Shown in pieces: positions 6,740 through 53,319 of a stretch of 64,000 nucleotides of DNA (positions within the stretch are counted from its first letter, which is position 1; each line of letters opens with the position of its first letter). Below the pieces are notes generated by a model, which saw only the letters and a program-made list of their open reading frames with translations, was not told the DNA's origin and made no database searches. The stretch comes from Candidatus Parcubacteria bacterium. GTDB taxonomy: Bacteria; Patescibacteriota; Minisyncoccia; Phycocordibacterales; CAIJYI01. The translations under genes were made by a program, and so were the position numbers. Location: assembly GCA_026395595.1 (NCBI GenBank), contig JAPLYL010000002.1, positions 122,111 to 186,110 of the forward strand, read 5' to 3'.

Positions 6740-7756
6740 GTGTTTGTTATGACTTTTTTCCCGACTTCTTTTGCTTATGCCGGTGTTTTTACTGATTTTA
6801 CTGATTTTTTCGGAAACATACTTCAGCCGGTAAATGCAGACCAGAAAACAGTCAATAGTATTCACAAAAACTCTCAAATAGGAGCCGCTTTGGAAGCGCC
6901 CCTTAATCATGATCTTAATCAGTCTTCTAATGAAGAAATCCCTGTAGAAGTGGATGGTTCTGCTGTTTCCGCTAATCTTTCCGTTACACCCATTACTGTT
7001 AATGATAAGAACACCAATAACACAAATGACCAGATTAGCGTATATGTCGTCCACGAAGGAGACACTTTGTCTCAAATCGCCAAAATGTTTGATGTAAGCC
7101 CGAATACTATCCTTTGGGCGAACGATATTCCCCGAAAAAGTTCTCTCAAAGTGGGGCAAAAACTTGTTATTCTCCCTGTATCCGGTATTCAATATACTGT
7201 TAAAAAAGGAGACACGATAAACAAAATAGCAAAAGCTTTCTCTGCTGATGCTGGCGAAATACGTGATTTTAATGATATACAAGACAGTTCCCTTTCTATT
7301 GGAGACATTATTATCATTCCAAATGGAATGGAAACACCTGCGCCGGTAACAGCTCCGAAAACCATTAAAAAAATACTTACCAATATTTTTTCTCCTGAAC
7401 CAAACATTGAAACAGACGGATATTTTATTCGTCCCGCAAAGGGTGTGAAAACACAAGGAATACATGGACATAATGGTGTTGACTTTAGTGCTCGGTCTGG
7501 CGTTTCCGTTGTCGCGGCCGCTGAAGGCAAAGTACTTATCAGTCTCAGTTCTGGTTATAATGGCGGATATGGAAGCTATATCGTTATCAATCATCCGAAT
7601 GGAACTCAGACACTTTATGGACATTTAAGCGCTAACTTTGTTTCTGCCGGCGATTATGTTTCTCAAGGTCAGCTTATCGGAAACATCGGAAACACAGGAA
7701 AATCAACCGGGCCGCATCTCCATTTTGAAATTCACGGAGCAAAAAATCCATTTTAA
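6740..7756 (+). CDS. LysM-domain peptidoglycan DD-metalloendopeptidase (M23 family)
   Basis: N-terminal hydrophobic signal; two LysM repeats (GDTLSQIAKMF, GDTINKIAKAF); M23 motifs HNGVDF and GNTGKSTGPHLHFEIH. Confidence 0.85.
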   Translation: MFVMTFFPTSFAYAGVFTDFTDFFGNILQPVNADQKTVNSIHKNSQIGAALEAPLNHDLNQSSNEEIPVEVDGSAVSANLSVTPITVNDKNTNNTNDQISVYVVHEGDTLSQIAKMFDVSPNTILWANDIPRKSSLKVGQKLVILPVSGIQYTVKKGDTINKIAKAFSADAGEIRDFNDIQDSSLSIGDIIIIPNGMETPAPVTAPKTIKKILTNIFSPEPNIETDGYFIRPAKGVKTQGIHGHNGVDFSARSGVSVVAAAEGKVLISLSSGYNGGYGSYIVINHPNGTQTLYGHLSANFVSAGDYVSQGQLIGNIGNTGKSTGPHLHFEIHGAKNPF

Positions 7757-8719: not shown

Positions 8720-9358
8720 TCAGTTCTTCTTCTCCCTATACCCCAACGCTTCAGCAAGATGTTTTTCCTGAATATCTTCACTTCCCGCAAGGTCGGCGAT
8801 GGTTCGTGCGAGTTTGATGATACGGTGATAAGCACGCGGTGAAAGCGATATTCTGGTCGCGGCGGAATTGAGGAGATTTTTCTCTTTTTCGCCAAGTGGT
8901 GCAAATTTTTCCAAATCTTTTGCGCTCATTTCGGAGTTGGTATTTATCTTTTTGTCGGCAAACCTTTTTTCTTGAATTTCTCTTGCTTTTAGTACTCTGT
9001 CGCGAATATCTTTAGAGGTTTCCATTCCTTCCGGCACTTTGTCAGAGAGTTTTTTGTAGTCGATTTCGGCGACTGGTAGGAAAATATCTATTCGATCCAT
9101 AATCGGACCAGAAAGTTTACGTTCATATTTGTAAATATCTCCTGCCGAACAAACGCACTCTTTTTTAGTACCTTTAAACCCGCACGGACACGGATTCATC
9201 GCGGCAACCAAAATGAAATTCGCTGGAAAAACTTCCGTCCCCTTCGCTCTTGAAATGCTCACAAATTTTTCTTCCAGCGGTTCGCGCAAGCTCTCTAAAA
9301 CTCGTTTTTCAAACTCAGGGAATTCGTCTAAGGTATATGTCCTACAAAAAACATTCAT
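8720..9358 (-). pseudogene. 3' fragment (C-terminal ~205 aa) of a comM/yifB paralogue
   Basis: The translation is ~90% identical to residues ~130-338 of the 9869..10885 ORF (DEFPEFEKRVLESLREPLEEKFVSISRAKGTEV...LAEALGYREKKN); nucleotide identity is ~85%; it has no N-terminal ATPase part. Confidence 0.7.
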
Positions 9359-9392
9359 TTATATTGTGGGACAACTATTTAGGTTTTTACCA

Positions 9393-9423
9393 TCAAAAAA
9401 ACACTCTTGATTTCTCAAGAGTG
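9393..9423 (-). terminator. rho-independent terminator (perfect 10-bp stem)
   Basis: ACACTCTTGA-TTTC-TCAAGAGTGT followed by a T7 run on the minus strand, downstream of the lipoprotein gene. Confidence 0.7.
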
Positions 9424-9493
9424 TTACGCTGTAATCAGTTTTCTTTATTTCGCGGACAAAGTTTCAGACAAAAACTTATCCCATTCCTTTATG

Positions 9494-9748
9494 TCAACTT
9501 TTTTCTGAGAAAAAAATCGAAATTTTTTCATTCACCTCTTTTTTCATGTTTTCACAAGTAATGGCGTATCCCTGTTGATTATTAGGAATATCTAATTTAT
9601 GGCAACCTTTTTCTCCGTTATGGTTTGTCCAGATGCTATATTCGATCCCGTCTAAATTAATAGAATGTTGATTGTATTCATTTCCATCAGAACAAGCACT
9701 TAATACAAAAATCAAAATTATCACTGGTAATAAAAATAACTTTTTCAT
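9494..9748 (-). CDS. small lipoprotein
   Basis: 84 aa with a signal peptide ending in the lipobox LSAC; it sits between the two comM 3' copies. Confidence 0.55.
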   Translation of the reverse strand: MKKLFLLPVIILIFVLSACSDGNEYNQHSINLDGIEYSIWTNHNGEKGCHKLDIPNNQQGYAITCENMKKEVNEKISIFFSEKS

Positions 9749-9868
9749 TTTTTACCTCTCAATTTTTTAAACAATGGGAAATAAAACTTCAACAAAAGCA
9801 CCAAAAAGTAATATACCCAACCCACATGCAAGTATATAGAATTCTTGATTTTGTGTCAATAGTGTGTT

Positions 9869-11444
9869 TCAGTTCTTCTTCTCCCTATACCCCAACGCTT
9901 CGGCGAGATGTTTATCTTGTATGTTTTCACTTCCTGCCAAGTCGGCGATGGTTCGCGCAAGTTTTATAATCCGATGATACGCGCGCGGTGAAAGACCCAT
10001 GCGGGTTGCGGCGGAATTGAGGAGGTTTTTTTCTTTTTCTCCGAGCGGAGCGAATTTTTCCAAGTCTTTCGCGCTCATTTCGGAATTGGTATTTATACGT
10101 TTGCCTTCAAATCGTTTCGTTTGTGTTTCGCGAGCTTTTAAAACACGGTCGCGAATATTTTTTGAAGTATCGGTTCCCTCCGGCGCTTTGTCGGAAAGTT
10201 TTTTGTAATCAATTTCGGCGACGGGCAAAAAGATATCAATGCGATCCATAATTGGGCCGGAAAGTTTGCGTTCATATTTGTATATGTCGCCGGCCGAGCA
10301 GACGCACTCCTTTTTAGTACCCTTAAATCCGCACGGACAGGGATTCATCGCGGCGACCAAGATGAAATTCGCCGGAAACACTTCTGTCCCCTTCGCGCGA
10401 CTGATTGAAACAAATTTTTCTTCAAGCGGTTCTCGCAAGCTTTCCAAAACTCGTTTTTCAAATTCGGGAAACTCATCTAAAAACAAGACTCCGCGATGTG
10501 CGAGGGTTACTTCGCCCGGTTTTGGAAAAGCTCCGCCTCCGATCAGTGAAACATATGAAGAAGTATGATGCGGAGCGCGAAATGGGGCGGTGGTGACAAG
10601 CGGTTCTTTAAGTGTGCCGGAAATAGAGTGAATCCCCGTTATCTCCAGAGCTTCTTCAAAAGAAAGTTCTGGCAGTAATTGCGAAAAAGCGCGCGCCAGC
10701 ATAGTTTTCCCTGTACCGGGCGGGCCGAACATAAGAACATTATGCTTTCCTGTTGCGGCGATTTCCAAACCTCGTTTTGCGGTTTCTTGCCCCCCGTACG
10801 TCTTCAAAGCCGTATTCACGCAGTGTTTCTCTTTTTTCAACTCTTCCCGGAACATGAGGCGGAATAGCCTTCGAAGCTGTTTCATCTTCAGATGTCATAG
10901 TATTCAGGTGTCTAATGACCTGTAAAAGCGTTTTACATCCAAAAACCGTAATACCCTCAATGATTGAGGCTTCATCTGCATTCTCATATGGCAGAAAAAC
11001 TTCGGTAAAACCTTTTTCTTTTGCTTTTTGAACCAGAGGAAGCGCCCCTTTAATAGGACGCAGTTCCCCGTTTAATCCGAGTTCTCCCAAGAAAAGTTTT
11101 TCTTTGGTATCAAACTTTATTTCTCCGCCGGCTAACAAGTATGTTAATGCGCACGCGAGATCAAAAAGAGTCCCCTCTTTTTTTATATTTGCCGGAGTGA
11201 GAGAAATTATTATTTTCTGATTTTTTGCTTTCGGTGATTTATACCCGGAATTCTTTATTGCTGCGGAAATGCGGTCTTTTGATTCATCAACGGATTTGTC
11301 GGGAAGTCCTACGACGGAAAAAGAGGCCATTCCTTTAGAAATATCCACTTCCACACAGACAATATGAGCGCGCAGTCCGACAGATTGAGCGCTATAACTT
11401 TTTGCGAAACCCATGATACATAAGAAATAAGCAAAAAGAAACAA
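9869..11444 (-). CDS. comM: Mg-chelatase-like AAA+ ATPase ComM/YifB, interrupted by a 1-nt frameshift in a G6/C6 tract (~10791-10796)
   Basis: The 10740..11444 ORF gives the Lon-like N-terminal domain; the 9869..10885 ORF gives Walker A GPPGTGKT and the C-terminal Mg-chelatase domain; the frames join as ...GFEDVRG|QETAKRGLEIAATG, the expected YifB junction. Confidence 0.8.
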
Positions 11445-18889: not shown

Positions 18890-19663
18890 ATGAAAATCAT
18901 CTCTTGGAACATCAATGGTATTCGCGCGACAAATAAGAAGAAGCTTTTTCTTCCTTTTTTGGAACAAGCAAAACCAGACATTCTTTGTCTGCAAGAAACA
19001 AAAGTGACCAAAGAACAACTTCCGGAAGAGTTAGTTACCATACCAGGATATTTCTCGTATTTTGCCTCGCCGGATACCAAGAAGGGGTATAGCGGGGTGG
19101 CTATTTATACCAAAGAAGAGCCGATAAAGATTGAATACGGAATAGGAAATCCCGAATTTGATAAGGAAGGTCGTGTTATTGTGGCCTATTACCCCGAATT
19201 TGTGCTTTTAAACGCATATTTTCCGAACGGCGGAGGAGGAGAAGAACGATTGAAGTATAAAATGGATTTTTATGATGCTTTTCTTTCTTTTATAGACCGT
19301 TTAAGGAAGAATGGACACAAAATTATTTTTTGCGGAGATGTAAATACGGCGCATGAAGAAATAGATCTTGCGCGTCCAAAACAAAATGAAGATAATACCG
19401 GATTTCTTCCCGAGGAACGCGCGTGGATTGATGAGGTCATCTCACACGGTTATACCGACACTTTTCGCAACGAACATCCGACAAAAAAAGATATTTATAC
19501 CTTCTGGGATATGAAGAGTCACGCGCGCGATAGAAATGTCGGTTGGAGAATAGATTATTTTTTTGTTAGCAACAATCTTTTACCGAAAATAAAGTCAACA
19601 CATATTTTATCTAATATTCTCGGTTCTGATCACTGCCCAATTTCGCTCTCAATAGAGCCGTAG
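18890..19663 (+). CDS. xthA: exodeoxyribonuclease III (AP endonuclease)
   Basis: N-terminal MKIISWNINGIRA, the EEP-fold motif order, and C-terminal GSDHCP. Confidence 0.9.
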   Translation: MKIISWNINGIRATNKKKLFLPFLEQAKPDILCLQETKVTKEQLPEELVTIPGYFSYFASPDTKKGYSGVAIYTKEEPIKIEYGIGNPEFDKEGRVIVAYYPEFVLLNAYFPNGGGGEERLKYKMDFYDAFLSFIDRLRKNGHKIIFCGDVNTAHEEIDLARPKQNEDNTGFLPEERAWIDEVISHGYTDTFRNEHPTKKDIYTFWDMKSHARDRNVGWRIDYFFVSNNLLPKIKSTHILSNILGSDHCPISLSIEP

Positions 19664-19689
19664 TTTGTCGTGTCCTTTAAGGAAATTTA

Positions 19690-19708
19690 GTTATCCACAG
19701 TTATCCAC
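19690..19708 (+). promoter_or_regulatory. two tandem perfect DnaA boxes (TTATCCACA g TTATCCACA)
   Basis: Exact matches to the 9-mer consensus at 19690-19698 and 19700-19708, immediately after the xthA stop. Confidence 0.5.
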
Positions 19709-19956
19709 ATTAAAGGACTTGCGTATAAAGGACAAGGAAGTATAATAATAATCAGATAGTGATTCAATAAATAGATAACCAAGGGAACTTATTTGTTCTA
19801 CCGCCTCAACAAAGGCAACCATCTATAAAAACATTATCATAGTCAGTCACATTTGTTCTTTCCTAGGTCACAAAAAATAGAATATACCCCAAGGGCCGCA
19901 CATGCGGCCCTTTATTTATTATTGGTGCTAACCGAGCGGTCTTTTTCGCGACCTTT

Positions 19957-20029
19957 GCTTTATTTTTTAAAAATTATCGTGGAGCAGTACTATTTGTACA
20001 GCTCCGCGATAATTTTTAAAAAATAAAGC
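19957..20029. repeat. 29-bp inverted repeat (1 mismatch) with a 15-bp spacer
   Basis: GCTTTATTTTTTAAAAATTATCGTGGAGC ... GCTCCGCGATAATTTTTAAAAAATAAAGC. Confidence 0.6.
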
Positions 20030-20127
20030 AAATTCTTGCCCTGCCGTAGCTTTAGCGAAGGAGGGTCATCGAAAAATCCTCGCTCTTTGTTTTGTTGTGT
20101 TTACAGGTGATTCTGAACCATAAGCCT

Positions 20128-20267
20128 CTGAATCCAAAAACTCCTTTTTCCCATCCAAATAACCCCTCCCGTCATGCCGGGCTTGACCCGGCATCCACGT
20201 AGTTAAGCGGTATTTCATAGATCCCGGGTCAAGACCGGGATGACGACTGAGAGTTTTTGGATTCAAG
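20128..20267. mobile_element. MITE/REPIN-like element, copy 1 (terminal inverted repeat TGAATCCAAAAACTC plus two inverted core hairpin units)
   Basis: Left end CTGAATCCAAAAACTCC; core units CGTCATGCCGGGCTTGACCCGGCATCCACG and ATCCCGGGTCAAGACCGGGATGACGA; right end GAGTTTTTGGATTCAAG; the ORF track's 20066..20266 ORF lying over it is spurious. Confidence 0.6.
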
Positions 20268-20351
20268 GATAAGCTTTTTTGACTTAAGGCACAATATCAA
20301 TTACTATCTATGTTGGAAACACTGTATTTTTACTGCAAAAAGGAGTAGATT

Positions 20352-20639
20352 ATGCAACTTGCTATAGATATCCTTAAACGAATCAATTTATTTTATGTAA
20401 ACTACGGAAGAAATTCCAACGAAAAAGTTCTTATCACCTATTTTAACATGACACAGGGTCAAAGTGCGGAAAGCGTTCAAAACTCTTTGAACAAATTGTT
20501 TCAAAAGGATTTGATTACGCGAGCATCCTCGGGAGAAAAAGAGGAAATAAGCACTGACATTATCCCAACATCATACACCCTTGGATTATTGGATGATTAT
20601 ACAGTTGAAGAGATTTTCTTTAATAGAATCCAAAAATAA
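20352..20639 (+). CDS. hypothetical protein
   Basis: 95-aa ORF inside the MITE-flanked island, followed by a hairpin terminator (~20663-20692). Confidence 0.4.
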   Translation: MQLAIDILKRINLFYVNYGRNSNEKVLITYFNMTQGQSAESVQNSLNKLFQKDLITRASSGEKEEISTDIIPTSYTLGLLDDYTVEEIFFNRIQK

Positions 20640-20696
20640 GGCTAGGGGCCTTCCGTAAATACAAAAACGCGACCAATCGGCCGCGTTTTTTAACAT

Positions 20697-20960
20697 TTAT
20701 TGATAGATCTCATGCGAACCTATTTTTAATAAAAATACCGTATTTTCTTCCCCGTACTCAAAAATGATTCGAAATTTATAATTTACTGAAAAACTATAAA
20801 AACCAGACAATTGACCGCCAAGTTTATGAACTTTTAACAATTTATGGTTTCCTTGTTCCTTAAAAAGTTCAATTTTTTCAATCGCCTCGTCTTGAAGCGC
20901 TATCGGAAGTGATTTCCATTGGCGGATAAAGAGAGGAGCATAAGCAATATCTAATTCCAT
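20697..20960 (-). CDS. RelE/ParE-superfamily toxin (type II toxin-antitoxin)
   Basis: 87 aa; the C-terminal SFSVNYKFRIIFEYGEENTVFLLKIGSHEIYQ fits the RelE/ParE/YafQ-like pattern; it lies immediately downstream of the RHH antitoxin gene. Confidence 0.7.
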   Translation of the reverse strand: MELDIAYAPLFIRQWKSLPIALQDEAIEKIELFKEQGNHKLLKVHKLGGQLSGFYSFSVNYKFRIIFEYGEENTVFLLKIGSHEIYQ

Positions 20961-20970
20961 AAAAAGTATA

Positions 20971-21192
20971 TTACCCTAGTTGTTGAGAAAGCTCTCTTAT
21001 ATCCCCCCGCATTGCTTTACCTGCGTGAATTTCTTGCTGTGCCTTGAGAACATCGCTTACCGCCTCATCTTCAGCGAGAAGACGGAGCGCTTGTCTTACT
21101 ACCTCGGCTTTATTTGAAGCCCGGCCTTTCTTTACAAAAGAATCAATAAATTCTTCAAGAGCTGGGTTTAATGGAACAGAAAGAGTACTCAT
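20971..21192 (-). CDS. ParD-like ribbon-helix-helix antitoxin
   Basis: 73 aa; MSTLSVPLNPALEEFIDSFVKKGRASNKAEVVRQALRLL is typical of ParD/COG3609 antitoxins; 10-nt gap to the toxin gene. Confidence 0.7.
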   Translation of the reverse strand: MSTLSVPLNPALEEFIDSFVKKGRASNKAEVVRQALRLLAEDEAVSDVLKAQQEIHAGKAMRGDIRELSQQLG

Positions 21193-21262
21193 AGTAATAA
21201 TGTATTATATAATAATATGATACTATCATATTTCATTTTTTTGTTACCGTCAAGTCATAAGA

Positions 21263-21513
21263 CTGTGAATCCAAAAACTCTTCGTTCGTCATCCTCGCGA
21301 ATGCGGGGATCCACGTCGTTAAGTCATACTCTGGAGCACCACAAGAGTATTTCCATTTTTATAGTCGCTTCGCTCCTTATACTACAAGAGTATTTCCATT
21401 TTTATAGTCGCTTCGCTCCTTAAAAATTAGGTCAAAATTAGGTCGCCCCGTATTCGCGAGGATGACGATTTTGGGATATTTTAGTCCAAGGAAACGAGTT
21501 TTTGGATTCACAG
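21263..21513. mobile_element. MITE/REPIN-like element, copy 2 (with an internal 2 x 39-bp tandem repeat)
   Basis: Ends are CTGTGAATCCAAAAACTC / GAGTTTTTGGATTCACAG; cores CGTCATCCTCGCGAATGCGGGGATCCACG and its inverted partner; the direct repeat ACAAGAGTATTTCCATTTTTATAGTCGCTTCGCTCCTTA occurs twice (21332-21413). Confidence 0.6.
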
Positions 21514-21531
21514 ACATTAGTCACAGAAACC

Positions 21532-23223
21532 TTATTTAACCCCGTGTTTCTTGCGTATTTCAGTAAGTTCTTGTTCCTCAGCCTCAGCTTTTGCCTCTTT
21601 CCCTTCTTCTCCAAGTTTTTTAAGCTCTGATTCCGGAAGTTTTATAAGTTCTTGAGTGCGTTTCTCAAGATATTCTGCTGTGTTGAGGTTTGGATCTTCT
21701 AAAACCTCCTCCAGGAGCGCGTGCAGGATAAGTCCAAGTTTTGGTCCGGGTGTTTCATGTGTAACCTCCATTATTCTCGTACCATCAATTTTGAGCATTC
21801 CGACGGAAACAGGTGCACGCATCGCTTCTTCTATCATCGCCTCGTATTTTCGTAAACGATAGGGTTTTTCAACCGGTCTTCCCATTCCAATACGGTCACA
21901 TGCCCTTATTTTCATAAGATCCCACACATTTTCCGGTCCGACATTCGCAACAATCCTTCTTACTGCTGAAAGCGTTATCTTTTCCACATCTGAGAAGAAA
22001 AGATGATATTTTACCAGAGATGAAACCGTATCGGAAAGTTTCACGGGAAACCTTAATCGTTCCATTATCTTCTTTGAAACCCTTCCACCAACGACGTCAT
22101 GCCCGTAAAACGTCCAATTGTCCTTCTCTTTAGACCATCGGCGTGTTTCCGGCTTGGAAATATCGTGCAGCAAAGAGCCTAAACGGATATGAAGAGGCCA
22201 ATTATGCCTCGCCGCATTATCAAGAGCGCGAAGGTTATGTTCCCAGACCGTATAGATATGACTCCCGTTTTGTTCCACACCAATCCCCTTTTCCAGTTCC
22301 GGGACGATAAATCGCAATAAACCAAGCTCATGAGTCAAAACGATACCGCTCATAGTATTCTCCGACATAACTATTTTTACAAATTCATCACGAATTCTTT
22401 CACATGAAACATGTTTCAGATTGTCGGAAAGCTGTTTTATGGCATCTTCCGTCTCTTTTTCTATAGTGAAACCCAGTTGGGTAGCAAAACGAACAGCGCG
22501 CAGTAAACGAAGAGCGTCTTCATTGAAACGGTCTTCCGGTTTCCCTATTGCCCTGACGATTTTGTCCTTTATATCAGATTGTCCTTTATAAAGGTCAACA
22601 ATAATACCCTCTTTTGGGTTGTATGCGAGTGCATTTATCGTAAAATCACGGCGTTTCAGGTCGTCTTCCAGTTTTTTACTGAAAATCACCGCATTCGGAT
22701 GCCTTTTGTCGCTATATTCCGATTCCATTCGGTAAGGCGTAACCTCTATAATAGTTGTTGTTTCATGTGTAACAGGGTTTTCCTCATTTTTTAATGTTTC
22801 ACATGTAACTATTTGATTGACCGCTCGCGCGGCTCGCTGTGGCGTAGGAGTCAGTCTGGGGACTGACGGATGAAAACCTACGGTTTTCATACTTTCCCTT
22901 GTTTCACATGTAACATTTTCGTCACCACCATCTGATGTTTCATGTGTAACGGTCGGTCGGACGTGGTCTCTGACCCCGTCCGGAACATTTGTATTTACCA
23001 CAACCCCCACGGTTCCAAAGGTATTTTCATAGAAGGTTTTCTCAAAAAGCCCGATTATTTCTTCCGGTACGGCATTAGTGGTAACATCCCAATCTTTCGG
23101 TTCCCTTCCCAAAATAAGATCTCTTACACAGCCACCAACCAAATAAGCTTCAAAACCGGCGTCTTGAAGGGTTTCTGTTACACGTGTAACATATAATGGA
23201 ATATGGCTCTGTAAGTCTTTCAT
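21532..23223 (-). CDS. cca: CCA-adding tRNA nucleotidyltransferase (class II, with HD domain) carrying an ~85-aa in-frame insertion
   Basis: LVGGCVRD, RRDFTINA, ERxxxE and a C-terminal HD motif (LLHDISK); the insertion falls between the FGTVGVV and IEVTPYRMESEY blocks. Confidence 0.8.
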   Translation of the reverse strand: MKDLQSHIPLYVTRVTETLQDAGFEAYLVGGCVRDLILGREPKDWDVTTNAVPEEIIGLFEKTFYENTFGTVGVVVNTNVPDGVRDHVRPTVTHETSDGGDENVTCETRESMKTVGFHPSVPRLTPTPQRAARAVNQIVTCETLKNEENPVTHETTTIIEVTPYRMESEYSDKRHPNAVIFSKKLEDDLKRRDFTINALAYNPKEGIIVDLYKGQSDIKDKIVRAIGKPEDRFNEDALRLLRAVRFATQLGFTIEKETEDAIKQLSDNLKHVSCERIRDEFVKIVMSENTMSGIVLTHELGLLRFIVPELEKGIGVEQNGSHIYTVWEHNLRALDNAARHNWPLHIRLGSLLHDISKPETRRWSKEKDNWTFYGHDVVGGRVSKKIMERLRFPVKLSDTVSSLVKYHLFFSDVEKITLSAVRRIVANVGPENVWDLMKIRACDRIGMGRPVEKPYRLRKYEAMIEEAMRAPVSVGMLKIDGTRIMEVTHETPGPKLGLILHALLEEVLEDPNLNTAEYLEKRTQELIKLPESELKKLGEEGKEAKAEAEEQELTEIRKKHGVK

Positions 23224-23283
23224 AAGAGCAATTGTAACAAACTTTTGATATTTTGTGAATTTTAGTGTAGTATACGATTATAA

Positions 23284-23355
23284 GCGCCCGTAGTGAAACG
23301 GATATCACAACGGTCTTCGAAACCGTTAGTCCAGGTTCGAGTCCTGGTGGGCGCA
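23284..23355 (+). tRNA. tRNA-Arg (anticodon TCG)
   Basis: I folded the cloverleaf by hand: acceptor GCGCCCG/TGGGCGC, anticodon loop CTTCGAA, T-loop TTCGAGT, discriminator A; CCA is not encoded. Confidence 0.85.
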
Positions 23356-23418
23356 CAAGAAATATATAAGTATTTTTTCTATTGAAAAAACTTTTATTTT
23401 TCGTATAATAGTGACATT

Positions 23419-23489
23419 GCGGGTATGGTTTAGTGGTAGAACATTTGCTTGCCAAGCAAAAGACGCGGTTTCGATTACCGCTACCCGCA
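23419..23489 (+). tRNA. tRNA-Gly (anticodon GCC)
   Basis: Acceptor GCGGGTA/TACCCGC, anticodon loop TTGCCAA, T-loop TTCGATT. Confidence 0.85.
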
Positions 23490-23496
23490 CAATGAG

Positions 23497-23524
23497 AAAA
23501 TACCGCCATGTGGCGGTATTTTCT
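23497..23524 (+). terminator. rho-independent terminator after the tRNA pair
   Basis: ATACCGCCA-TG-TGGCGGTAT followed by TTTT. Confidence 0.65.
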
Positions 23525-23525
23525 G

Positions 23526-23534
23526 TTATCCACA
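23526..23534 (+). promoter_or_regulatory. perfect DnaA box TTATCCACA
   Basis: Exact 9-mer; a second copy lies in reverse orientation at 23950-23958 (TGTGGATAA). Confidence 0.4.
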
Positions 23535-23567
23535 TAATTAAACTTTCTTTATTTTGTTCATTATTTT

Positions 23568-23891
23568 GTGTATACTAAAGATATGGAAATTAAAACTGAG
23601 TTTGAATCCGCTCTTATTTTACACAACATGCGCGAGTTCGTTATGGACAAACACAAGTTTGATGAATGCATACCGGAAAATATGAAAGAAGACCGAGAAT
23701 ACGGCTTTCTTGTGTCCGGACAGCGCAATTATTGGCTTTTGGGAAAGTTTCCTTTGCATGAAAAACGAGAAGATGGCGTCGTTTCAGCAGATCCGCGCGC
23801 TATTATTAATATCTTTGAAGTAACACATTTCATCGATAACGGACAGATTTGTACGCGAGGAAAATATAAAATACTCCAGATTGTGGGATAA
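23568..23891 (+). CDS. hypothetical protein
   Basis: 107-aa ORF followed by the terminator ACACCC-CTTATC-GGGTGT-TTTT (23915-23937). Confidence 0.4.
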   Translation: MYTKDMEIKTEFESALILHNMREFVMDKHKFDECIPENMKEDREYGFLVSGQRNYWLLGKFPLHEKREDGVVSADPRAIINIFEVTHFIDNGQICTRGKYKILQIVG

Positions 23892-24172
23892 TACTCATCT
23901 ACCATGACTCTTAAACACCCCTTATCGGGTGTTTTTCTATCCCCATAGATATGTAAAACTGTGGATAACTCTGTGTACATGTGTATAAAGGACACTTTTT
24001 TGAACCACTCGCAAGCATTCTTTTTTTGACCTTTTGTCAATAAATGTGGCTTAAAATAACACTATTTGCTTAGGTCATCAAGAGAAAAAGGGTAAAGTAC
24101 AAAAGGGAAAAATAGACGTTTCACATGAAACGTTGTTTTGTGAATTTCCTTTAAAAGGGGTATTATCTTTTT

Positions 24173-45505: not shown

Positions 45506-45720
45506 ACGTTAAATTAAATTTACTATTAGTAATTGAATAATTTTCAAACTATACTATGTTTCAGCGAAAAAAACAAGGAAGAACGCGGTATCTCATCACG
45601 CACTTGTCGCCCGACGGGGTCAGAGACCCGGTCCGGCGTAGGAGATATAAAACGTGCAAACATCCGAGTTTTTGATATTATGATTTTATGCTCTGCTTAT
45701 AAAAGAGGATGGTTAAAGAA

Positions 45721-45860
45721 CTTGAATCCGAAAACCCACTATCGTCATACCGGACTTGATCCGGTATCCACGTCGTTAATGCGCATTACATGGATCCCGT
45801 GTCTCGGCACGGGACGACGAACGGGTTTTTACGCAAAAAAATGGGGTTTTTGGATTCAGG
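45721..45860. mobile_element. MITE/REPIN-like element, copy 3
   Basis: CTTGAATCCGAAAACCCAC ... CGTCATACCGGACTTGATCCGGTATCCACG ... ATCCCGTGTCTCGGCACGGGACGACGA ... GGGGTTTTTGGATTCAGG; the ORF track's 45533..45871 ORF is spurious. Confidence 0.6.
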
Positions 45861-45880
45861 TTAAAGAATAATATACATAT

Positions 45881-46255
45881 ATGAAACAAGAAATAATCAC
45901 ACAACTTCATAAAAATTTTGAGGATTACGCGCAAAAGACCAAAAACGGATTTGAATTTTGGTATGCTCGCGATTTACAGATTTTGCTCGGCTATAATGAA
46001 TGGAGAAATTTTCAAAAAGTCATTGAAAAAGCGAAAATCGCTTGTAAAAATACCGGTTTATCGGTTGATGACCATTTTGTTGACGCCAACAAAATGGTCG
46101 GTGTCGGATCGGGGGCAAAGAGAGAAATAGACGACATTTCTCTCACTCGCCACGCTTGTTACTTCATTGCTCAAAACGGTGACCCGAGAAAAGAAGAAAT
46201 CGCTTTCGCTATGGCATATTTTTCCGTTCAAATGAGAAAACAAGGAAGTCATTGA
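45881..46255 (+). CDS. DinD/Bro-N-like protein, N-terminal fragment (probably truncated)
   Basis: FEFWYARDLQILLGYNEWRNFQKVIEKAKIACKNTGLSVDDHFVDANKMVGVGSGAKREIDDISLTRHACYFIAQNGDPRKEEIAFAMAYF resembles E. coli DinD, but the ORF stops at 124 aa and similarity continues in another frame. Confidence 0.55.
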   Translation: MKQEIITQLHKNFEDYAQKTKNGFEFWYARDLQILLGYNEWRNFQKVIEKAKIACKNTGLSVDDHFVDANKMVGVGSGAKREIDDISLTRHACYFIAQNGDPRKEEIAFAMAYFSVQMRKQGSH

Positions 46256-46416
46256 AAAAAGAATTGCAGAAAGGGTCTATTCTGGCTACAATTTTCGTGT
46301 TTGAGGCACTGGTAGGACGTCCCACATTTAGATTTTAAAGAATTTGCAAAAAATTTGCAAGTTTTTTTCTTTTGTGTATAATAAAGATACTTTAGACATA
46401 AGTTTAAGCAAAATAT

Positions 46417-47670
46417 ATGCAAATTTCACTTATAGAATTTTCAGTAGAAAACTTCAGCGTTTTTAAAGAAAAGGCAACACTTTCTATGGTGGCGCGGAAA
46501 AATGATAACCATACATTTGAATCAAATGGTGAAAACCTACTGAAAACCTCTTTTATTTATGGTCCGAATGCCTCAGGAAAAACCTCTCTTTTGGACGCTT
46601 TTGTGAATTTGAAAACGGGAATTTTGTTTTCTTCCAATATGAAAGAAAATTCAGAGTTGCCCTATAATCCGTTTTTGGCATCGGAAAACACCAAAACAAA
46701 GCCAGTTTGGTTTGAGTTGGTTTTTTCTGCACTTGGGGATCATGCCGGAATATATAGATATTCCTTCTCTTTCTTGCCGGATCATATTGTTACGGAGAAT
46801 TTTACTAAAATATCTATAACTGGGGTAGAGGAACAACTTATTTCGCGAACGGGGCAAGATATAATACTTTCGGGTTGGGGAGATGACGTACAAATTTTGC
46901 GTGACAAAGCGCGTAAGGAAACACTTTTCTTGTCTGTTGCGGCACAATTCAATAATAAACTTGCCCTAAGTTTTGTGGAGGCGTTAAAAAATGTGAATAT
47001 CATTTCAGGCGTTACTTATGCAACCTATCAGCAATTCACTATAAAAAAATTCAAAGATGATCCGCTATACAAAGAAAGTATTTTAAAATACTTAAAAACT
47101 GCCGACTTTTGTATTTCCGGCGGTCGAACAAAAGAAATTGACATTCCATCTTTAGAAAACGTTAAAGATGAGCCAGATATGTTTTCTGCGGTTAAACGAA
47201 TGATAAAACACACCGCTTTGTTTTTCGAGCATCCTGTGTTTGGTAAAAACAACGAACCGGTCGGTGTGTTCGAGCTGTCTCTTGAAGAAGAGTCAACCGG
47301 TACACAAAATTTTCTTTCTATGCTTGGACCAATCATTAACACTCTTGAAACAGGTAAAGTTCTTGCCATAGACGAATTTGATAACAGCTTGCATCCGCTT
47401 TTGACAAAATTTATTGTCGATCTTTTTGAATCATCTGAGACAAATAAACACAACGCTCAACTTGTCGTAACGACACACGACACAAGTTTACTTTCGTATC
47501 GCGATGATTTTATCAAAGATCAATTTTGGTTTACCGATAAAGATGAATTTGGTTCAGCTCGGCTGTTTTCTCTTGCTGAATTTGATATAAGAAATGATAC
47601 TGAATTTGCGAAAAAATATCTGGAAGGTCGATTTGGCGCTCTGCCGTTTATCGGTTCCGTAAAAAAGTAA
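46417..47670 (+). CDS. AAA_21/ABC-type ATPase (OLD / AbiLi / AriA-like)
   Basis: Walker A GPNASGKTS near the N-terminus, Walker B/D-loop LAIDEFDNSLHP, and H-loop VVTTHD. Confidence 0.75.
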   Translation: MQISLIEFSVENFSVFKEKATLSMVARKNDNHTFESNGENLLKTSFIYGPNASGKTSLLDAFVNLKTGILFSSNMKENSELPYNPFLASENTKTKPVWFELVFSALGDHAGIYRYSFSFLPDHIVTENFTKISITGVEEQLISRTGQDIILSGWGDDVQILRDKARKETLFLSVAAQFNNKLALSFVEALKNVNIISGVTYATYQQFTIKKFKDDPLYKESILKYLKTADFCISGGRTKEIDIPSLENVKDEPDMFSAVKRMIKHTALFFEHPVFGKNNEPVGVFELSLEEESTGTQNFLSMLGPIINTLETGKVLAIDEFDNSLHPLLTKFIVDLFESSETNKHNAQLVVTTHDTSLLSYRDDFIKDQFWFTDKDEFGSARLFSLAEFDIRNDTEFAKKYLEGRFGALPFIGSVKK

Positions 47671-47674
47671 AGGA

Positions 47675-48298
47675 ATGTCTGTTTTTCAACGCAAACGCGA
47701 TACCCGTAAGATTCGCAAAGTAATTCGGATATACACGGAAGGTACAAAAACGGAGCCGAATTATTTCGGCTCGATAAAAGATGAATTGCGAATATCTGAA
47801 ATAGATATTCAAATTCAAGGGGTGCGAGGATTTAACAATCATACTTTACCGCTCGTTGGGTCGGTGATTGAAAGAAAAAAAGAGGAAGAAAAAAATAACG
47901 ATTTTGAAACGGAATGGTGGGTTGTTTTTGATAAAGATGATTTTCCTGATTTTAATAGTGCTATTGATTTGGCACAAAAACACGGCATTAACGTTGTCTA
48001 TTCCAACGAGTGTTTTGAATTATGGTTTATTCTCCATTTTGAGTTTTTGCAGACTTCTCTCGGAAGGAATAATTTTGAACCAAAGTTATCAAAGTTGCTC
48101 GGCAGAAAATATGAAAAGAAGAGTTCGGATATTTACGATCTGATAAAAGATAAAGAATCCAACGCGATTCGTTACGCAAAAAAGCTGGAAAAAATGCATG
48201 ATGATGAAAAAGTGAGTTCTCCGGAACAAAGAGTTCCATCAACTTTAGTCTATAAACTGGTCGAAAGATTACGATCACTAAAAACCGAAAGAGAATAG
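47675..48298 (+). CDS. RloB-like (Toprim-like) protein
   Basis: N-terminal IYTEGTKTEPNYF matches the RloB signature (CEGxTExxYF); starts 5 nt after the ATPase stop. Confidence 0.7.
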   Translation: MSVFQRKRDTRKIRKVIRIYTEGTKTEPNYFGSIKDELRISEIDIQIQGVRGFNNHTLPLVGSVIERKKEEEKNNDFETEWWVVFDKDDFPDFNSAIDLAQKHGINVVYSNECFELWFILHFEFLQTSLGRNNFEPKLSKLLGRKYEKKSSDIYDLIKDKESNAIRYAKKLEKMHDDEKVSSPEQRVPSTLVYKLVERLRSLKTERE

Positions 48299-48302
48299 TT
48301 TT

Positions 48303-48887
48303 ATGACCGCCAAAACCACAAATCGCCATATTAAAATTGTTAATAAAGCAAAGCAAAAAATCAAAGAACTTCTTGAAGATCCGAATTGTGTTTGGAGAAC
48401 CATGAGAATACTTAAGGGGCACACAACGGGATTATCCGAACAAGAAATCCTTGATATTTTGTCGAATCTTGGAGCAACGAGTTCTGTCGGAGAAAAAGGT
48501 GAAAAAATATGGAAGTTACATTCCCGTGGCGATAATGATACCCACAAACAAAAAAAGCAATCTCGAAATAAAATTATTTCTCACTCTGACTATTGGAAAA
48601 ATATTTGGTCCCAATGTTCCAAAATTAAATTCAGATACGTTATAATTTCCATGTTGTTAGTTTCTGCATATCTGGGTTACATAAAATTTTCTCCCGAGGT
48701 AAGCACTCCTCTTGGTAAATTTGCATTTAACACAAGCGAATCAAATAAAGTTCTTAGTTCGTCGGTTTTATCTGCTGATATAAACCCAAAAAAATGGACG
48801 TTTCTGTTTTTGGGTTGGTCTCAAGTATTGATTACCGTAAACCCTTATTCAATGTTCAAAAGAAATGGGAAGGATACAAAGGATTAA
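48303..48887 (+). CDS. hypothetical protein, predicted wHTH N-terminus plus one TM
   Basis: Starts 5 nt after the RloB stop; TM segment FRYVIISMLLVSAYLGYIKF. Confidence 0.45.
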   Translation: MTAKTTNRHIKIVNKAKQKIKELLEDPNCVWRTMRILKGHTTGLSEQEILDILSNLGATSSVGEKGEKIWKLHSRGDNDTHKQKKQSRNKIISHSDYWKNIWSQCSKIKFRYVIISMLLVSAYLGYIKFSPEVSTPLGKFAFNTSESNKVLSSSVLSADINPKKWTFLFLGWSQVLITVNPYSMFKRNGKDTKD

Positions 48888-49147
48888 ATACAACAAAAGA
48901 ACAAGCTATACTCTTTAATTCTGGAGATACTGGGTCAGGAAAAATTTGGGCAGATTTGGAAAGTACGCATCTGTATGACGGAAAAAATGTTAAAATCACG
49001 TGCGTTTTTGGAGGAGAATGGGCTCAAAGAATTGAAGTCCTTGGAGAAAAAGAACATGGAACCCGCGAATTAACTTTTTCGGGAATCATTAATGGTGATT
49101 TGTCACAAGGAAATCTCCCCGTGTTAGAAGATTGTAAGTTGTATTAA
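48794..49147 (+). CDS. hypothetical protein (overlaps the previous ORF by 94 nt in the +2 frame)
   Basis: Its ATG follows an A7 run directly; the translation is plausible and beta-rich; the start is uncertain. Confidence 0.35.
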   Translation: MDVSVFGLVSSIDYRKPLFNVQKKWEGYKGLNTTKEQAILFNSGDTGSGKIWADLESTHLYDGKNVKITCVFGGEWAQRIEVLGEKEHGTRELTFSGIINGDLSQGNLPVLEDCKLY

Positions 49148-49156
49148 TCACACAAT

Positions 49157-49384
49157 GTGAGTAAAAGCGGTGAGCATGTTGTCGCGATTCAGTCTAAAAT
49201 CAAAAAAGAAAAAAATTACTGTATGTTGTTCTCGAAATTTTTTGAGGCCAAAAGCTTGAAAAAAATGCTGATCGAGTCGTTCCAGCAGATCCACTCAAAG
49301 ATTATTTGGAATACGTGCGATAGTAGGAAAGAGAGAGTTGACACAAACAAACCCGCCAAACCTTACGGTTTGGGCGGGGGATAA
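49157..49384 (+). CDS. hypothetical small protein
   Basis: 75-aa ORF, the last in this same-strand cluster. Confidence 0.3.
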   Translation: MSKSGEHVVAIQSKIKKEKNYCMLFSKFFEAKSLKKMLIESFQQIHSKIIWNTCDSRKERVDTNKPAKPYGLGGG

Positions 49385-49491
49385 ATACAATCCTAATATC
49401 CCATAGGCGAGGGTAACTTGCATTACGTATACAATACGTATCCGTAGCACCTATTAGTCAAGCTCTTCCGCTGTGGACAAGTGCATAAAAA

Positions 49492-49522
49492 CAACTCCGC
49501 AAAGTTTGCGGAGTTATTTTTT
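49492..49522. terminator. bidirectional terminator
   Basis: AACTCCGCAAA-GTT-TGCGGAGTT followed by TTTTTT. Confidence 0.7.
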
Positions 49523-49529
49523 ATCTTTC

Positions 49530-50873
49530 TTATTCTTCCGTTTTTTCCTCTTTTTTCTTTTTGGTTTTCTTCGGTTCTTCTTTTGCCGTTTCGGCGGAGG
49601 CGGATTCCACTTCTCCTTTCAGTACTTCTTCTACCACCTCTTTTTCCGTGATGACTTCTTCGGTTGGGGTTTCATTTATTGATTCTTCAAATTCTTTCAC
49701 TTCCTTCTCTTCTTCCAGTTCTTTTTCTTCCTCCTCTACTGCTTCTTCCGTTTCTTTGGTGGAATGAATGTCTATTTTCCAGCCGGTCAATTTGGCGGCC
49801 AGTCTCGCGTTTTGACCTCCTTTTCCGATAGCGAGGGAAAGCTGGTCTTCGGCGACGATGACTGAGGCACGCTTTTCTTCGGGGCGGAGTTCTACGGAGA
49901 GGATTTTGGCGGGAGCGAGAGAATCGGAGATGAATTTCTTTGCATCTTCCGACCATTCTATAATATCTATCTTTTCTCCTCCGAGTTCGCTCATGACGGT
50001 GGTTACTCGGACGCCTCTTTGTCCGACACAGGAACCGATCGGGTCAATGTGCTCATCGTTTGAATACACGGCGATTTTTGCGCGTGAACCCGGTTCGCGG
50101 GCGATATTTTTGATCTCAACGACCCCACTCATGACTTCTGGCGCTTCCATCTTGAAAAATTCTTCAATGAGTTTTGGGTGGGTGCGGGAAAGGCGGAGGT
50201 TTATTCCTCTCGGTGTGTCTTCAACGCGATAAAGAAAGGCTTTGATGCGCTCTCCTTGGCGATATTTTTCACGGGAGATCTGTTCTTCGTAAGGAAGAAT
50301 AGCGGTCGTTTTTCCGAGGTCTACGAAGATATTCCCCTTTTCAATTCTTTGAACCATTCCGTTGACGACTTCTCCTTCTTTTTTGCCGAATTCGTCCATC
50401 GTCGTGCTTTTCTCCGCTTCACGGATTTTCTGAATAATGACCTGTTTTGCGGTTTGTGCGGCAATGCGTCCGAAATCTTCTTTGGTTTCAAGAGGGAAGA
50501 CGAGTTCTTCTTCAACGGCGGCATCGCGTTTGATTTTCTTGGCATCTTCAAGAAGAATATGGTGTTCGCTGTTGAAGCGAGTACGAAGGTCGTTTTCGTC
50601 TTTTTCTTCCTCAATCGGTTCACCATTTTCATCAAGCGGAGCCGGCATTTTAACGATGGATTCGTCAACGATGACCTTTACCTGCGAGAAATCGGTCGCT
50701 CCTGTGTCCAAATCAAATTTGGCGCGGACGATTTGCCCCTTTTTACCGTATTCTTTTTTGTAGGCGGCAGCGAGAGACATTTCTATCGCTTCCAAGATCT
50801 TTTCTTTGGAAATGCCTTTTTCTTCCTCCATTTGCTCAAGTGCCGAGCGGAGCGTTTTAAGATCAAATAACAT
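49530..50873 (-). CDS. nusA: transcription termination/antitermination factor NusA
   Basis: N-terminal domain, then S1 and two KH domains, and an acidic/K-rich C-terminal tail. Confidence 0.9.
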   Translation of the reverse strand: MLFDLKTLRSALEQMEEEKGISKEKILEAIEMSLAAAYKKEYGKKGQIVRAKFDLDTGATDFSQVKVIVDESIVKMPAPLDENGEPIEEEKDENDLRTRFNSEHHILLEDAKKIKRDAAVEEELVFPLETKEDFGRIAAQTAKQVIIQKIREAEKSTTMDEFGKKEGEVVNGMVQRIEKGNIFVDLGKTTAILPYEEQISREKYRQGERIKAFLYRVEDTPRGINLRLSRTHPKLIEEFFKMEAPEVMSGVVEIKNIAREPGSRAKIAVYSNDEHIDPIGSCVGQRGVRVTTVMSELGGEKIDIIEWSEDAKKFISDSLAPAKILSVELRPEEKRASVIVAEDQLSLAIGKGGQNARLAAKLTGWKIDIHSTKETEEAVEEEEKELEEEKEVKEFEESINETPTEEVITEKEVVEEVLKGEVESASAETAKEEPKKTKKKKEEKTEE

Positions 50874-51019
50874 ATATTTGTTGTTACACTTATAATTTTG
50901 ACAATTTTGTTAAAAAAATGAGCCCGTACGGGACGGACTCAAGGTATGAATATATAGTACTCTGTGATGCCATTTTGTCAAGGAACATGCTTGTCAACAG
51001 TTATCCACTGTTTATCATA

Positions 51020-51048
51020 TTGACGAATACATGACAGGAAGTATAATA
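51020..51048 (+). promoter_or_regulatory. near-consensus sigma70 promoter TTGACG-17-TATAAT
   Basis: TTGACG at 51020-51025 and TATAAT at 51043-51048; the DnaA-box-like TTATCCACT at 51001-51009 lies just upstream; AGGAGA SD and ATG at 51055. Confidence 0.5.
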
Positions 51049-51054
51049 GGAGAC

Positions 51055-52895: not shown

Positions 52896-53012
52896 CAAAA
52901 TTAAACAACTTAAAAATGTTATTAAAGATGCAATAGACGAGCGTTTTAATACAGTGATAAGGTAGAAGTTAAACTGGAAGAGATCATAAATAAAGCTGTA
53001 CTTGAATATGAA

Positions 53013-53315
53013 ATGCTTCTTACTGAAGATGTAAAGCAGGTACTTAAAAATAATTATAAAATAGACTTTTATAACCGTGGATATCTTGGTGATAAAATAA
53101 AAATTTACGAAGCCACCGTTGGGAAAAATGAGTTCAGTAAATTATTGTGGAAAATTAATATGATACGTAATGATTTGAGTCACACACGTATTGATAAACT
53201 TTTTTATAAAAAGCAGGATCTATCTCTAAGAGAAACAAAAGAGGTTTTACTTACTGATTTATTTACTCAAATGATAAACCACGGTGAACCATCCTTAAAA
53301 GTGAATTCAAAATAA
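53013..53315 (+). CDS. hypothetical protein
   Basis: 100-aa ORF. Confidence 0.35.
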   Translation: MLLTEDVKQVLKNNYKIDFYNRGYLGDKIKIYEATVGKNEFSKLLWKINMIRNDLSHTRIDKLFYKKQDLSLRETKEVLLTDLFTQMINHGEPSLKVNSK

Positions 53316-53319
53316 TTTT

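Follow-up and report, generated by a model that had tools for sequence, protein, structure and literature searches.

The genes xthA and cca are neighbours in the genome of a Candidatus Parcubacteria bacterium (GenBank assembly GCA_026395595.1, contig JAPLYL010000002.1), separated by an interval of 1868 nt at positions 19664-21531 of the 64,000-nt stretch analysed here (the window). The interval holds DnaA boxes, hairpins, a small open reading frame (ORF95) and a toxin-antitoxin (TA) pair that is bracketed by two copies of a miniature inverted-repeat transposable element (MITE). Is this spacer a single accessory island, brought in as a composite or mobilisable cassette as a preliminary description of the sequence had suggested, or do its parts have separate histories? 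The data favour the second answer, and we put the probability at about 75% that the spacer was assembled layer by layer as a mosaic and is neither one island nor a mobile cassette.

The first layer would be old and conserved, a small-RNA gene directly 3' of xthA with a DnaA-boxed promoter. The second, between the terminator of the RNA and the 3' end of cca, would be cargo that varies among lineages, with a gene of 95-103 aa in most of them, a 36-bp hairpin in some and the TA module in four. The third layer would be recent and would consist of the MITE of about 140 bp, inserted independently on each side of the TA pair.

The xthA-cca spacer in related lineages

An exact look-up of the window's own XthA gave no record; related loci were reached through homologues of XthA and of the toxin, which yielded nine related lineages with DNA. 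The identity of XthA to that of the window was 95% for L052, 89% for L054/L055, 82% for L040-L042, 79% for L043/L044, 73% for L045/L046, 71% for L047/L048 as well as for L049, and 69% for L050/L051. The genes xthA (18890-19663, plus strand; Exo_endo_phos, E = 2.8e-33) and cca (21532-23223, minus strand; PolyA_pol, RNA-binding and HD domains) were adjacent in 9/9 lineages examined, i.e. over XthA identities from 95% to 69%. The spacer measured 316 nt in L050, 864-1191 nt in L040, L043, L045, L047 and L049, 1427 nt in L054, 1779 nt in L052 and 1868 nt in the window. The interval is indeed unusually long, being the longest of the series (316-1779 nt in the relatives, and 316-1191 nt in those devoid of TA pair and MITEs). 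Judged from gene order, the adjacency of xthA and cca appears to be old and the variable part to be the spacer.

All features named in the preliminary description were found in 19664-21531 with small errors of position. The two tandem perfect DnaA boxes lie at 19691-19709 instead of 19690-19708 and the GC hairpin at 19891-19912 instead of 19889-19910; the inverted repeat, given as 29 bp at 19957-20029, has arms of 37 nt at 19954-20032, and the tandem repeat in the second MITE copy is 2 x 43 nt and not 2 x 39. The gene calls (xthA, cca, a ParD-like antitoxin and a toxin of the RelE/ParE superfamily) agreed with domain and family matches and with the toxin fold. On the other hand, the 1.9 kb could not be upheld as one accessory block. 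About 0.25 kb of it, comprising DnaA boxes, promoter, non-coding RNA and terminator, has been kept in lineages whose XthA identity goes down to 71%, and ORF95 belongs to a syntenic family.

The first MITE copy (W1) is located at 20126-20268 on the plus strand, or 20120-20274 with its target duplication ATAAGC (20120-20125 and 20269-20274). The second copy (W2) is a rearranged element of 251 nt at 21263-21513, also on the plus strand, without a clean target duplication. Two like elements in the same orientation, which had been a point to be checked, hence bracket a cargo of about 1 kb, and together they could have formed the two ends of a compound transposon by which ORF95 and the TA pair reached the spacer. 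TA modules are often mobile, and the same TA cassette is present at another locus, beside alr, in L056/L057, which would fit such a transposon. Yet W1 has a complete 6-bp duplication of its own, and no target-site duplication is shared around the block, the outer flanks of the pair being ATAAGC and ACATTA. In L054 (XthA 89%) and L049 (71%) the TA pair occupies the same site but MITEs are lacking altogether, and L052 has a MITE of a different subfamily, inverted, at the site of W2. Furthermore, the relocated TA copy beside alr in L056/L057 is devoid of MITE ends, and homologues of ORF95 occur in L040, L043 and L045, lineages without TA pair and MITEs. We therefore consider a composite or mobilisable cassette extremely improbable. 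Because of the duplication belonging to W1 alone, the relatives with only the TA pair and the different inverted copy in L052, the bracketing of the TA pair by MITEs would be a coincidence of two later, separate insertions into a permissive, promoter-proximal spacer. The idea of a landing pad for insertions fared better than that of the cassette, in that the spacer is variable and has apparently received two separate MITEs.

The order of events could then be the following. The TA module would have resided here since before the four lineages split, or would have been moved by homologous exchange among close relatives, and would have been lost, or relocated next to alr, in other lineages. The insertion of MITE copy 1 would go back to an ancestor shared by the window and L052, and the position of copy 2 would have been struck, or overwritten, separately in the two.

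The repeat family and the toxin-antitoxin module

The 15-nt terminal inverted repeat (TIR) of W1, TGAATCCAAAAACTC at 20129-20143 and 20251-20265, occurs six times in the window, contributed by three elements, against 0.47 occurrences expected. The TIRs of the family are 15-18 nt long (terminal repeat sequence ACNTGAATCCAAAAAC), are 100% complementary in W1 and W2 and are conserved across nine copies. Standard full-length copies measure 135-142 nt. Their 5' half is composed of a 3-nt end, TGAATCC(A/G)AAAAC, CGTCAT, a GC-rich hairpin A and an invariant 14-nt core ATCCACGTNGTTAA, followed in the 3' half by hairpin B, ATGACG, a T-rich spacer, GTTTT(T/C)GGATTCA and again a 3-nt end. Hairpins A and B change sequence between copies and retain their pairing. 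The only ORF across W1 (66 aa, 20066-20266, minus strand) had no family match. W2 deviates from this architecture by about 110 additional internal nt, which include the 2 x 43 tandem repeat (21338-21422), and by the replacement of hairpin B with the inverse of hairpin A; its tandem unit had no other copy in the window or the fetched loci. In L035 (2635-2720) we noticed an internally deleted copy that joins the internal TTTGGATTC directly to the terminal TTTGGATTCA. This points to deletions mediated by the repeat of its own end sequence that the element carries internally.

The third copy in the window (W3), not mentioned in the preliminary description, lies at 45720-45861 on the plus strand (45714-45867 with its duplication TAAAGA) between an H+-pyrophosphatase gene and a Bro-N gene. 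Target duplications were located just outside the 3-nt ends: ATAAGC/ATAAGC in W1, TAAAGA/TAAAGA in W3 and AAAAGA/AAAAGA in the second copy of L052 (L052a). Copies from other metagenome-assembled genomes (MAGs) had them at the same offset, with TCGCATA/TCGCATA (7/7) in L034 and TCGTGA/TCGTGG (5/6) in L003, and they were absent or indistinct in W2, L016 and L030. As a control, mismatched pairs of left and right flanks mostly shared 0-3 of 6 positions. An orthologue of W1 is present at the identical site in L052 and L053, and L054 provides the empty site: in a three-way alignment of the spacers its gap matches the element plus one duplication. L054 also is without the second MITE, and the copy of the other subfamily which L052 has, inverted, at the position of W2 is flanked by the perfect AAAAGA duplication. 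Because of the target duplications and the empty site in L054 the repeats of about 140 bp are, as had been proposed, a genuine transposable-element (MITE) family, generating target duplications of 6-7 bp. The target sites resemble each other and are A-rich (ATAAGC, ATAAGA, AAAAGA, TAAAGA), which suggests a target preference.

The conserved features within the repeats could also mean that these function primarily as structured RNAs or as hairpin sites in the DNA, similar to REP/REPIN sequences moved by a Y1 transposase, and not DDE-type MITEs. Both GC-rich hairpins keep pairing despite sequence change between copies, the outer stem has one compensatory change from A-U to G-C (L016, L034) and one G.U pair on the plus strand (W3), the 14-nt core is invariant, and most copies are situated 10-25 nt upstream of a strong promoter in one orientation. 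However, clean 6-7-bp duplications together with an empty site are hallmarks of cut-and-paste DDE transposition, whereas the mobility of IS200/IS605 elements and REPINs involves no target duplications and requires no TIRs. In addition, Rfam had no match for the repeat, and the near-identical copies L003, L006 and L030 in one MAG indicate recent proliferation. We regard a primarily RNA- or REPIN-like nature as very unlikely and retain the classification as MITEs. Alignment of the MITE copies by MAFFT was mis-registered around insertions.

A scan of species-representative genomes with the core pattern returned repeated matches only in the Paceibacterota MAG SO_2016_GW1_123 (five loci) and one match in a Nomurabacteria MAG; the remainder were single chance matches in unrelated genomes. 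In metagenome contigs a stricter pattern matched seven contigs, all from the sample that had yielded SO_2016_GW1_123, and the family is therefore rare in the collections searched. That MAG contains at least seven copies. In viral contigs the core pattern gave one chance match, and a literature search for MITEs in Patescibacteria found no such family described.

Some observations concern the surroundings of W3. The region bordered by it (45881-54141) encodes two Bro-N proteins, an AAA_21 (AbiEii-like) ATPase with an RloB partner, an S24 peptidase and a RhuM-family protein and is likely a defence or mobile island. By eye only, a word GACGGGGTCAGAGACC was seen upstream of W3 (45605-45635) and in an insert of cca (22960-22985, reverse strand).

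The TA module is encoded on the minus strand, with a 73-aa ribbon-helix-helix antitoxin of the ParD family (20971-21192) ahead of an 87-aa toxin (20697-20960). The antitoxin scored above curated cutoffs (PF03693, 31.6 bits versus 21; TIGR02606, 49.2 versus 46.2) and matched Caulobacter ParD1 (PDB 3kxe, E = 8.5e-5). The toxin stayed marginally below them with TIGR02385 RelE/StbE (26.4 versus 27.9), PF05015 (25.8 versus 27) and PF05016 ParE (19.3 versus 23); it scored just under cutoff for the RelE/StbE, HigB, ParE, YafQ and YoeB models. An AlphaFold2 (AF2) model built with 42 homologues reached a predicted local distance difference test (pLDDT) score of 95.6, and Foldseek against the PDB placed almost exclusively structures of the ribosome-dependent mRNA interferases YafQ, RelE, YoeB or HigB among the top 50, at template modelling (TM) scores of 0.65-0.82 and a probability of 1.00, i.e. 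a RelE/YafQ/YoeB/HigB-like fold. The residues R64, H83 and Y86 are invariant in the 42 homologues. For mRNA interferases of the YoeB type we take the catalytic residues to be Glu46/Arg65/His83/Tyr84 in E. coli YoeB numbering. In a profile alignment to S. aureus YoeB (7v5y), R64 of the toxin fell on the conserved Arg and H83 on the C-terminal His; the acidic catalytic residue was not securely placed. Taken together, fold and alignment argue for a ParD-type antitoxin combined with a RelE/YoeB-like toxin, not a classical ParE. The toxin presumably cleaves mRNA on the ribosome. By the terms of the preliminary description, its reading would fail if relatives had the block in place with no sign of insertion and the toxin was devoid of its catalytic residues. 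The former is seen in the relatives that carry the TA block in place without a MITE insertion; as for the latter, the RelE/YoeB-type positions appear to be retained, judging from the alignment of R64 and H83.

The promoter of the module (21191-21253, minus strand; -35 TTGACG at 21253-21248, -10 TATGAT at 21230-21225) was a 10/12 match and is overlapped by an AT-rich palindrome at 21191-21226, likely the operator. The same pair of 73 and 87 aa is located between the spacer and cca in L052, L054 and L049. Identities of the toxin to these three lineages were 93/91/70%, compared to 95/89/71% for XthA; to L049, the antitoxin was 81% and Cca 65% identical. TA divergence thus tracks that of the flanking genes. 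Among the four TA loci the homology of the cassette extends from precisely the -35 hexamer to the stop codon of the toxin gene, and the copy adjoining alr in L056/L057 (toxin 79%) has the same limits; these two contigs come from the same two samples as L043/L044. We conclude from the comparison that the module is probably a discrete, self-contained unit of about 0.56 kb, long resident here in some lineages and lost or relocated in others. A pair of genes for 82 and 73 aa upstream of xthA in L050 was considered as a displaced TA homologue and turned out not to be one.

ORF95 (20352-20639, plus strand) is a diverged member of the 95-103-aa family of this spacer and is preceded by a promoter-like site found by promoter scan (TTGACT-17-TACTAT, 20279-20307, plus strand). 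The ORFs that L052 and L054 have at the corresponding position share 86% and 76% identity with it, respectively. With ORFs of 103 aa in L040, L043 and L045, and with two tandem ones of 79/80 aa in L047, it can be aligned over its length at 18-37% identity. It had no Pfam or NCBIfam match, and a word-indexed search returned only itself and the two close orthologues. Its AF2 model had a pLDDT of 46 and was not used. Because homologues hold the same place of the spacer in relatives, ORF95 is a fast-evolving syntenic gene and not imported cargo. Between the convergent ORF95 and toxin genes a hairpin AAAAACGCGACC/GGCCGCGTTTTT (20663-20690), conserved in L052 and L054, is probably a bidirectional terminator.

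The long hairpin of 36-37 bp has 37-nt arms at 19954-19990 and 19996-20032 (plus strand) that are 95% complementary. The window shares it with L052, L054 and L045, all substitutions in the arms being compensated, and it is absent from L040 and L043. Its three non-Watson-Crick pairs are all G.U, on the plus strand only, which weakly favours a plus-strand RNA hairpin. A GC-rich hairpin motif CCCTGCCGTAGCTTTAGCGAAGGAGGG at 20039-20065 was noticed in the window and in L052 and is mostly missing in L054. A similar word, CCCGCCGTAGCTTTTAGCGAAGGGGG, stands upstream of the MITE in L003, from another MAG, and hairpins of this type may form one more family of short repeats; within the window, to which the search was confined, the motif had one further weak match at 3 mismatches.

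The probable small RNA gene, its promoter and the origin question

Right after the xthA stop codon seven lineages have a near-invariant stretch in common, GTGTCCTTTAAGGAAAtttag-TTATCCACA-g-TTATCCACA-tTAAAGGAC-TTGCGT-aTAAAGGACaaggaag-TATAAT-aataATCAGATAGTGATT..., which contains the two tandem perfect DnaA boxes (19691-19699 and 19701-19709, plus strand, 10-nt phasing). Read directly from the sequence, a predicted sigma-70-like promoter (TTGCGT, 16-nt spacer, TATAAT; 19719-19746, plus strand) follows, with a -35-like hexamer at 19719-19724, a perfect TATAAT as -10 at 19741-19746 and a predicted RNA start near 19753. The boxes end 9 nt before the -35 hexamer, which puts them at about -44 to -62. 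No variation was seen among the seven lineages in the -10 hexamer or in the first ~25 nt of the putative transcript. The automated promoter scan skipped this promoter because its rule demands 4/6 in the first hexamer, which here has 3/6. The box pair was unchanged and at the same position in L052, L054, L040, L043 and L045; L049 has one perfect box and TTATCCACT, and in L047, where a single box is left, exactly one 10-nt unit is lost. DnaA boxes are thus conserved at this spot after xthA in at least seven related lineages. Three copies of an 8-mer TAAAGGAC (19672-19679, minus; 19711-19718 and 19726-19733, plus) bracket the boxes; copies stand either side of the -35 hexamer, and the third falls within the promoter spacer. 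The six copies in the 64 kb (2.4 expected) all lie between 19672 and 23993. The motif is kept in relatives and its copies are possibly sites for a second regulator.

Downstream of the promoter, fold, covariation and a covariance model delineate a conserved structured small RNA of about 165 nt (19753-19920, plus strand). A closing helix P1 encloses two hairpins and is followed by the CU-rich single-stranded GUUCUUUCCU and an intrinsic terminator (19891-19912, plus strand), which is the GC hairpin noted earlier, with a 9-bp stem and then a T-rich tail. The sequence folds better than shuffled controls (z = -3.7). RNAalifold on six lineages gave 24 pairs, 6 of them with compensatory changes, in the closing helix GUGAUU/AGUCAC, hairpin 1 GGAAC/GUUCC, hairpin 2 GCCU/AGGC and the terminator. 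Hairpin 2 exists in four versions across the lineages (GCCUCAACAAAGGC, GCGAUAACCAUCGC, GACUCUUAAAGAGUC and GCUCGUAACGAGC), and P1 is compensated in L049 to GGUGGUU/AACCACC. L040 (8890-9070) carries an AT-rich insertion of about 190 nt in the loop of hairpin 1, with an internal tandem duplication of about 65 nt, and in L049 the same hairpin bears a long extension. In most lineages GUUCUUUCCU is single-stranded and 3' of the closing helix. Insertions and deletions across the lineages are not multiples of three. The MAFFT alignment that included L040 and L049 was mis-registered around the insertions; no formal pair counts were taken from such alignments, and the evidence for pairing is that of the six-sequence RNAalifold and of folding copy by copy.

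A covariance model of the 5' domain (R1) detected a single copy at each related locus (E = 4e-26 to 3e-9) and no second copy in the 64-kb window. At gathering cutoffs Rfam contained no family for the RNA, as searched with the whole window and six related loci; at E<=10, the region 19600-21600 and the L050 spacer matched tRNAs and noise only, including miRNA-like matches on the long hairpin. We conclude that the sequence is most likely an independent, conserved and non-coding small-RNA gene with predicted promoter and terminator. DnaA bound at the box pair might modulate its transcription, and the RNA might act in trans via its CU-rich stretch.

In L050, the most distant relative, the entire spacer (6775-7090) is a different candidate RNA of about 230 nt. 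It comes with a promoter of its own and a terminator, and a long helix, GCUAGGCGGUGG...CCGCCGCCUAGC, closes the fold; there are no DnaA boxes and no Rfam match.

If the DnaA boxes were half of a split chromosomal origin, with the other half at 23526-23988, the conserved sequence behind them would serve initiation and not encode a regulatory RNA. Several findings are in line with this. All four perfect boxes of the 64 kb (19691, 19701, 23526 and 23960; 0.51 expected) fall within 19691-23968. The cumulative GC skew of the window reaches its minimum at about 23.5 kb, less than 4 kb from the boxes, and gene orientation diverges at about 17.6-24 kb, with genes on the left almost all on the minus strand and those on the right on the plus strand. 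The looser second group of boxes at 23526-23988 includes a pair on the minus strand, TTATCCACA (23960) and the one-mismatch TTATACACA (23980), 20 nt apart, which is conserved in L043 and L045 (window 23955-24000; L043 8690-8718; L045 14347-14375). This pair adjoins a TAAAGGAC, lies upstream of a UPF0102/YraN-like gene and faces the pair after xthA.

Origin-proximal parS clusters are bound by ParB/Spo0J and have the consensus TGTTTCACGTGAAACA. Nine parS-like 16-mers with <=3 mismatches to it form a cluster of 2.4 kb (21751-24117) at the skew minimum, in a region (21751-24132) that reaches from cca to upstream of the gene at 24173. Of the nine, eight fall within cca; outside the cluster the 64 kb contain just two sites, both weaker. 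Each deviates from the consensus by 2-3 bases. Several fall in a variable in-frame insert of about 90 aa in the nucleotidyltransferase head domain of Cca, where the repeated DNA word behind the peptides VTHET/VTCET is parS-like. The cluster was found in every relative.

On the other hand, 19691-19709 has just two boxes, what comes next is a promoter and an RNA gene, and no AT-rich unwinding element or run of DnaA-trios abuts the boxes. The reading of such an element after the boxes was rejected, as the nearest TAA repeats are 36 nt off and coincide with the -10 region. Among 49 ORFs of the window scanned against Pfam, the long ones being covered, there was no dnaA, dnaN, parA or parB. Helix covariation downstream, the tolerance of a ~190-nt loop insertion in L040 and the terminator are properties of an RNA gene, and the GC skew of the 64 kb largely mirrors gene orientation. 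A split origin at this place is therefore unlikely in our view. The two boxes are better explained as promoter-associated than as oriC, because there are only two, no unwinding element abuts them, the sequence downstream behaves like an RNA gene, and none of the four replication and partition genes was among the scanned ORFs. Since DnaA boxes, skew minimum, clustering of TAAAGGAC and the parS-like cluster coincide, the xthA-cca locus nevertheless is likely origin-proximal in this clade of the Candidate Phyla Radiation (CPR).

A more far-reaching picture, doubtful though less so than a split origin, would be that xthA-cca-tRNA-UPF0102 is an origin-proximal control region without dnaA nearby. 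The small RNA, an undescribed one with a DnaA-gated promoter, would link the status of DnaA to post-transcriptional control via its anti-Shine-Dalgarno-like CU-rich stretch, and cca would double as a centromere with about eight parS-like sites, several of them in the in-frame insert. A literature search on DnaA boxes or origins in Parcubacteria and on parS in the CPR found nothing relevant.

Away from this locus, at 8720-11444, a ComM/Mg-chelatase-like gene is apparently broken and partly duplicated. Three ORFs comprise a ChlI N-terminal part, Mg_chelatase with C-terminal part and a second partial Mg_chelatase with C-terminal part; in relatives the gene is single and encodes 515-525 aa.

Weight of the evidence and comparison with known systems

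Some findings weigh against the spacer as a layered mosaic. The TA pair is patchy, being absent from L040, L043 and L045 (XthA 82-73%) and yet present in L049 (71%), so that vertical inheritance needs several losses; the pair may conceivably have spread by lateral exchange among relatives. The flanks of W2 agree in 3/6 positions at the usual offset and in 5/6 if the ends shift by one base. An autonomous transposase with MITE ends was not found, with no distant TIR pairs in the fetched loci and none among the Pfam-scanned ORFs of the window, the collections having been scanned with one pattern each. The covariation of the small RNA is drawn from only about eight lineages, and the DnaA boxes could belong to an origin-proximal DnaA-binding cluster and not to the promoter.

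With the TA pair and the MITEs, well-known kinds gain new members, and an ordinary explanation accounts for the way they are arranged. Flanking by like repeats does not amount to evidence for a composite element, and the order of events emerges from the comparison of lineages. CPR genomes are usually thought poor in mobile DNA, and here a MITE family is active in such reduced genomes. The DnaA-boxed small RNA and the parS-like cluster are more interesting. To our knowledge almost no regulatory RNA has been described in this phylum, and the structured RNA without an Rfam family is a concrete candidate; the parS-like cluster in cca at the skew minimum offers a testable handle on chromosome start and segregation in uncultured organisms.

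Bacterial MITEs include the Correia elements of Neisseria, RUP of Streptococcus pneumoniae and Nezha of cyanobacteria. The present family is like these in being non-coding and about 140 bp long, with TIRs, target duplications, dispersed intergenic copies often by promoters and a long hairpin fold. It differs by its reduced-genome CPR host, two covarying GC-rich hairpins and the invariant 14-nt core, and we could not match it to any described element. The end dinucleotide AC or CC together with the 6-7-bp duplication is reminiscent of the IS982 family, which we take as a lead only.

The TA pair corresponds to type II modules of ParD with RelE/ParE in that the antitoxin comes first, a gap of 10 nt separates genes for 73 and 87 aa, a palindromic operator lies over the promoter and the toxin has a RelE fold. 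The usual partner of ParD is the gyrase-poisoning ParE. In contrast, by its fold and conserved Arg/His/Tyr the present toxin resembles the mRNA-interferase branch, with sequence models just under cutoff.

The sites in cca resemble parS clusters in number and density (9 sites with <=3 mismatches in 2.4 kb), in their position at the GC-skew minimum and in their conservation in relatives. Unlike these, most are within the cca reading frame, all are 2-3 bases off, and no parA/parB was among the Pfam-scanned ORFs of the window.

DnaA-regulated promoters outside oriC are known from dnaA, nrdAB and sda. The product of the promoter after xthA would, in contrast to these protein genes, be a small non-coding RNA, and we know of no described DnaA-controlled small RNA. 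In E. coli, pairs of closely spaced DnaA boxes are reported to be the preferred non-origin targets (PMC11317965). The promoter after xthA is like the DnaA-regulated promoters outside oriC in its two phased consensus boxes immediately upstream of the -35 hexamer.

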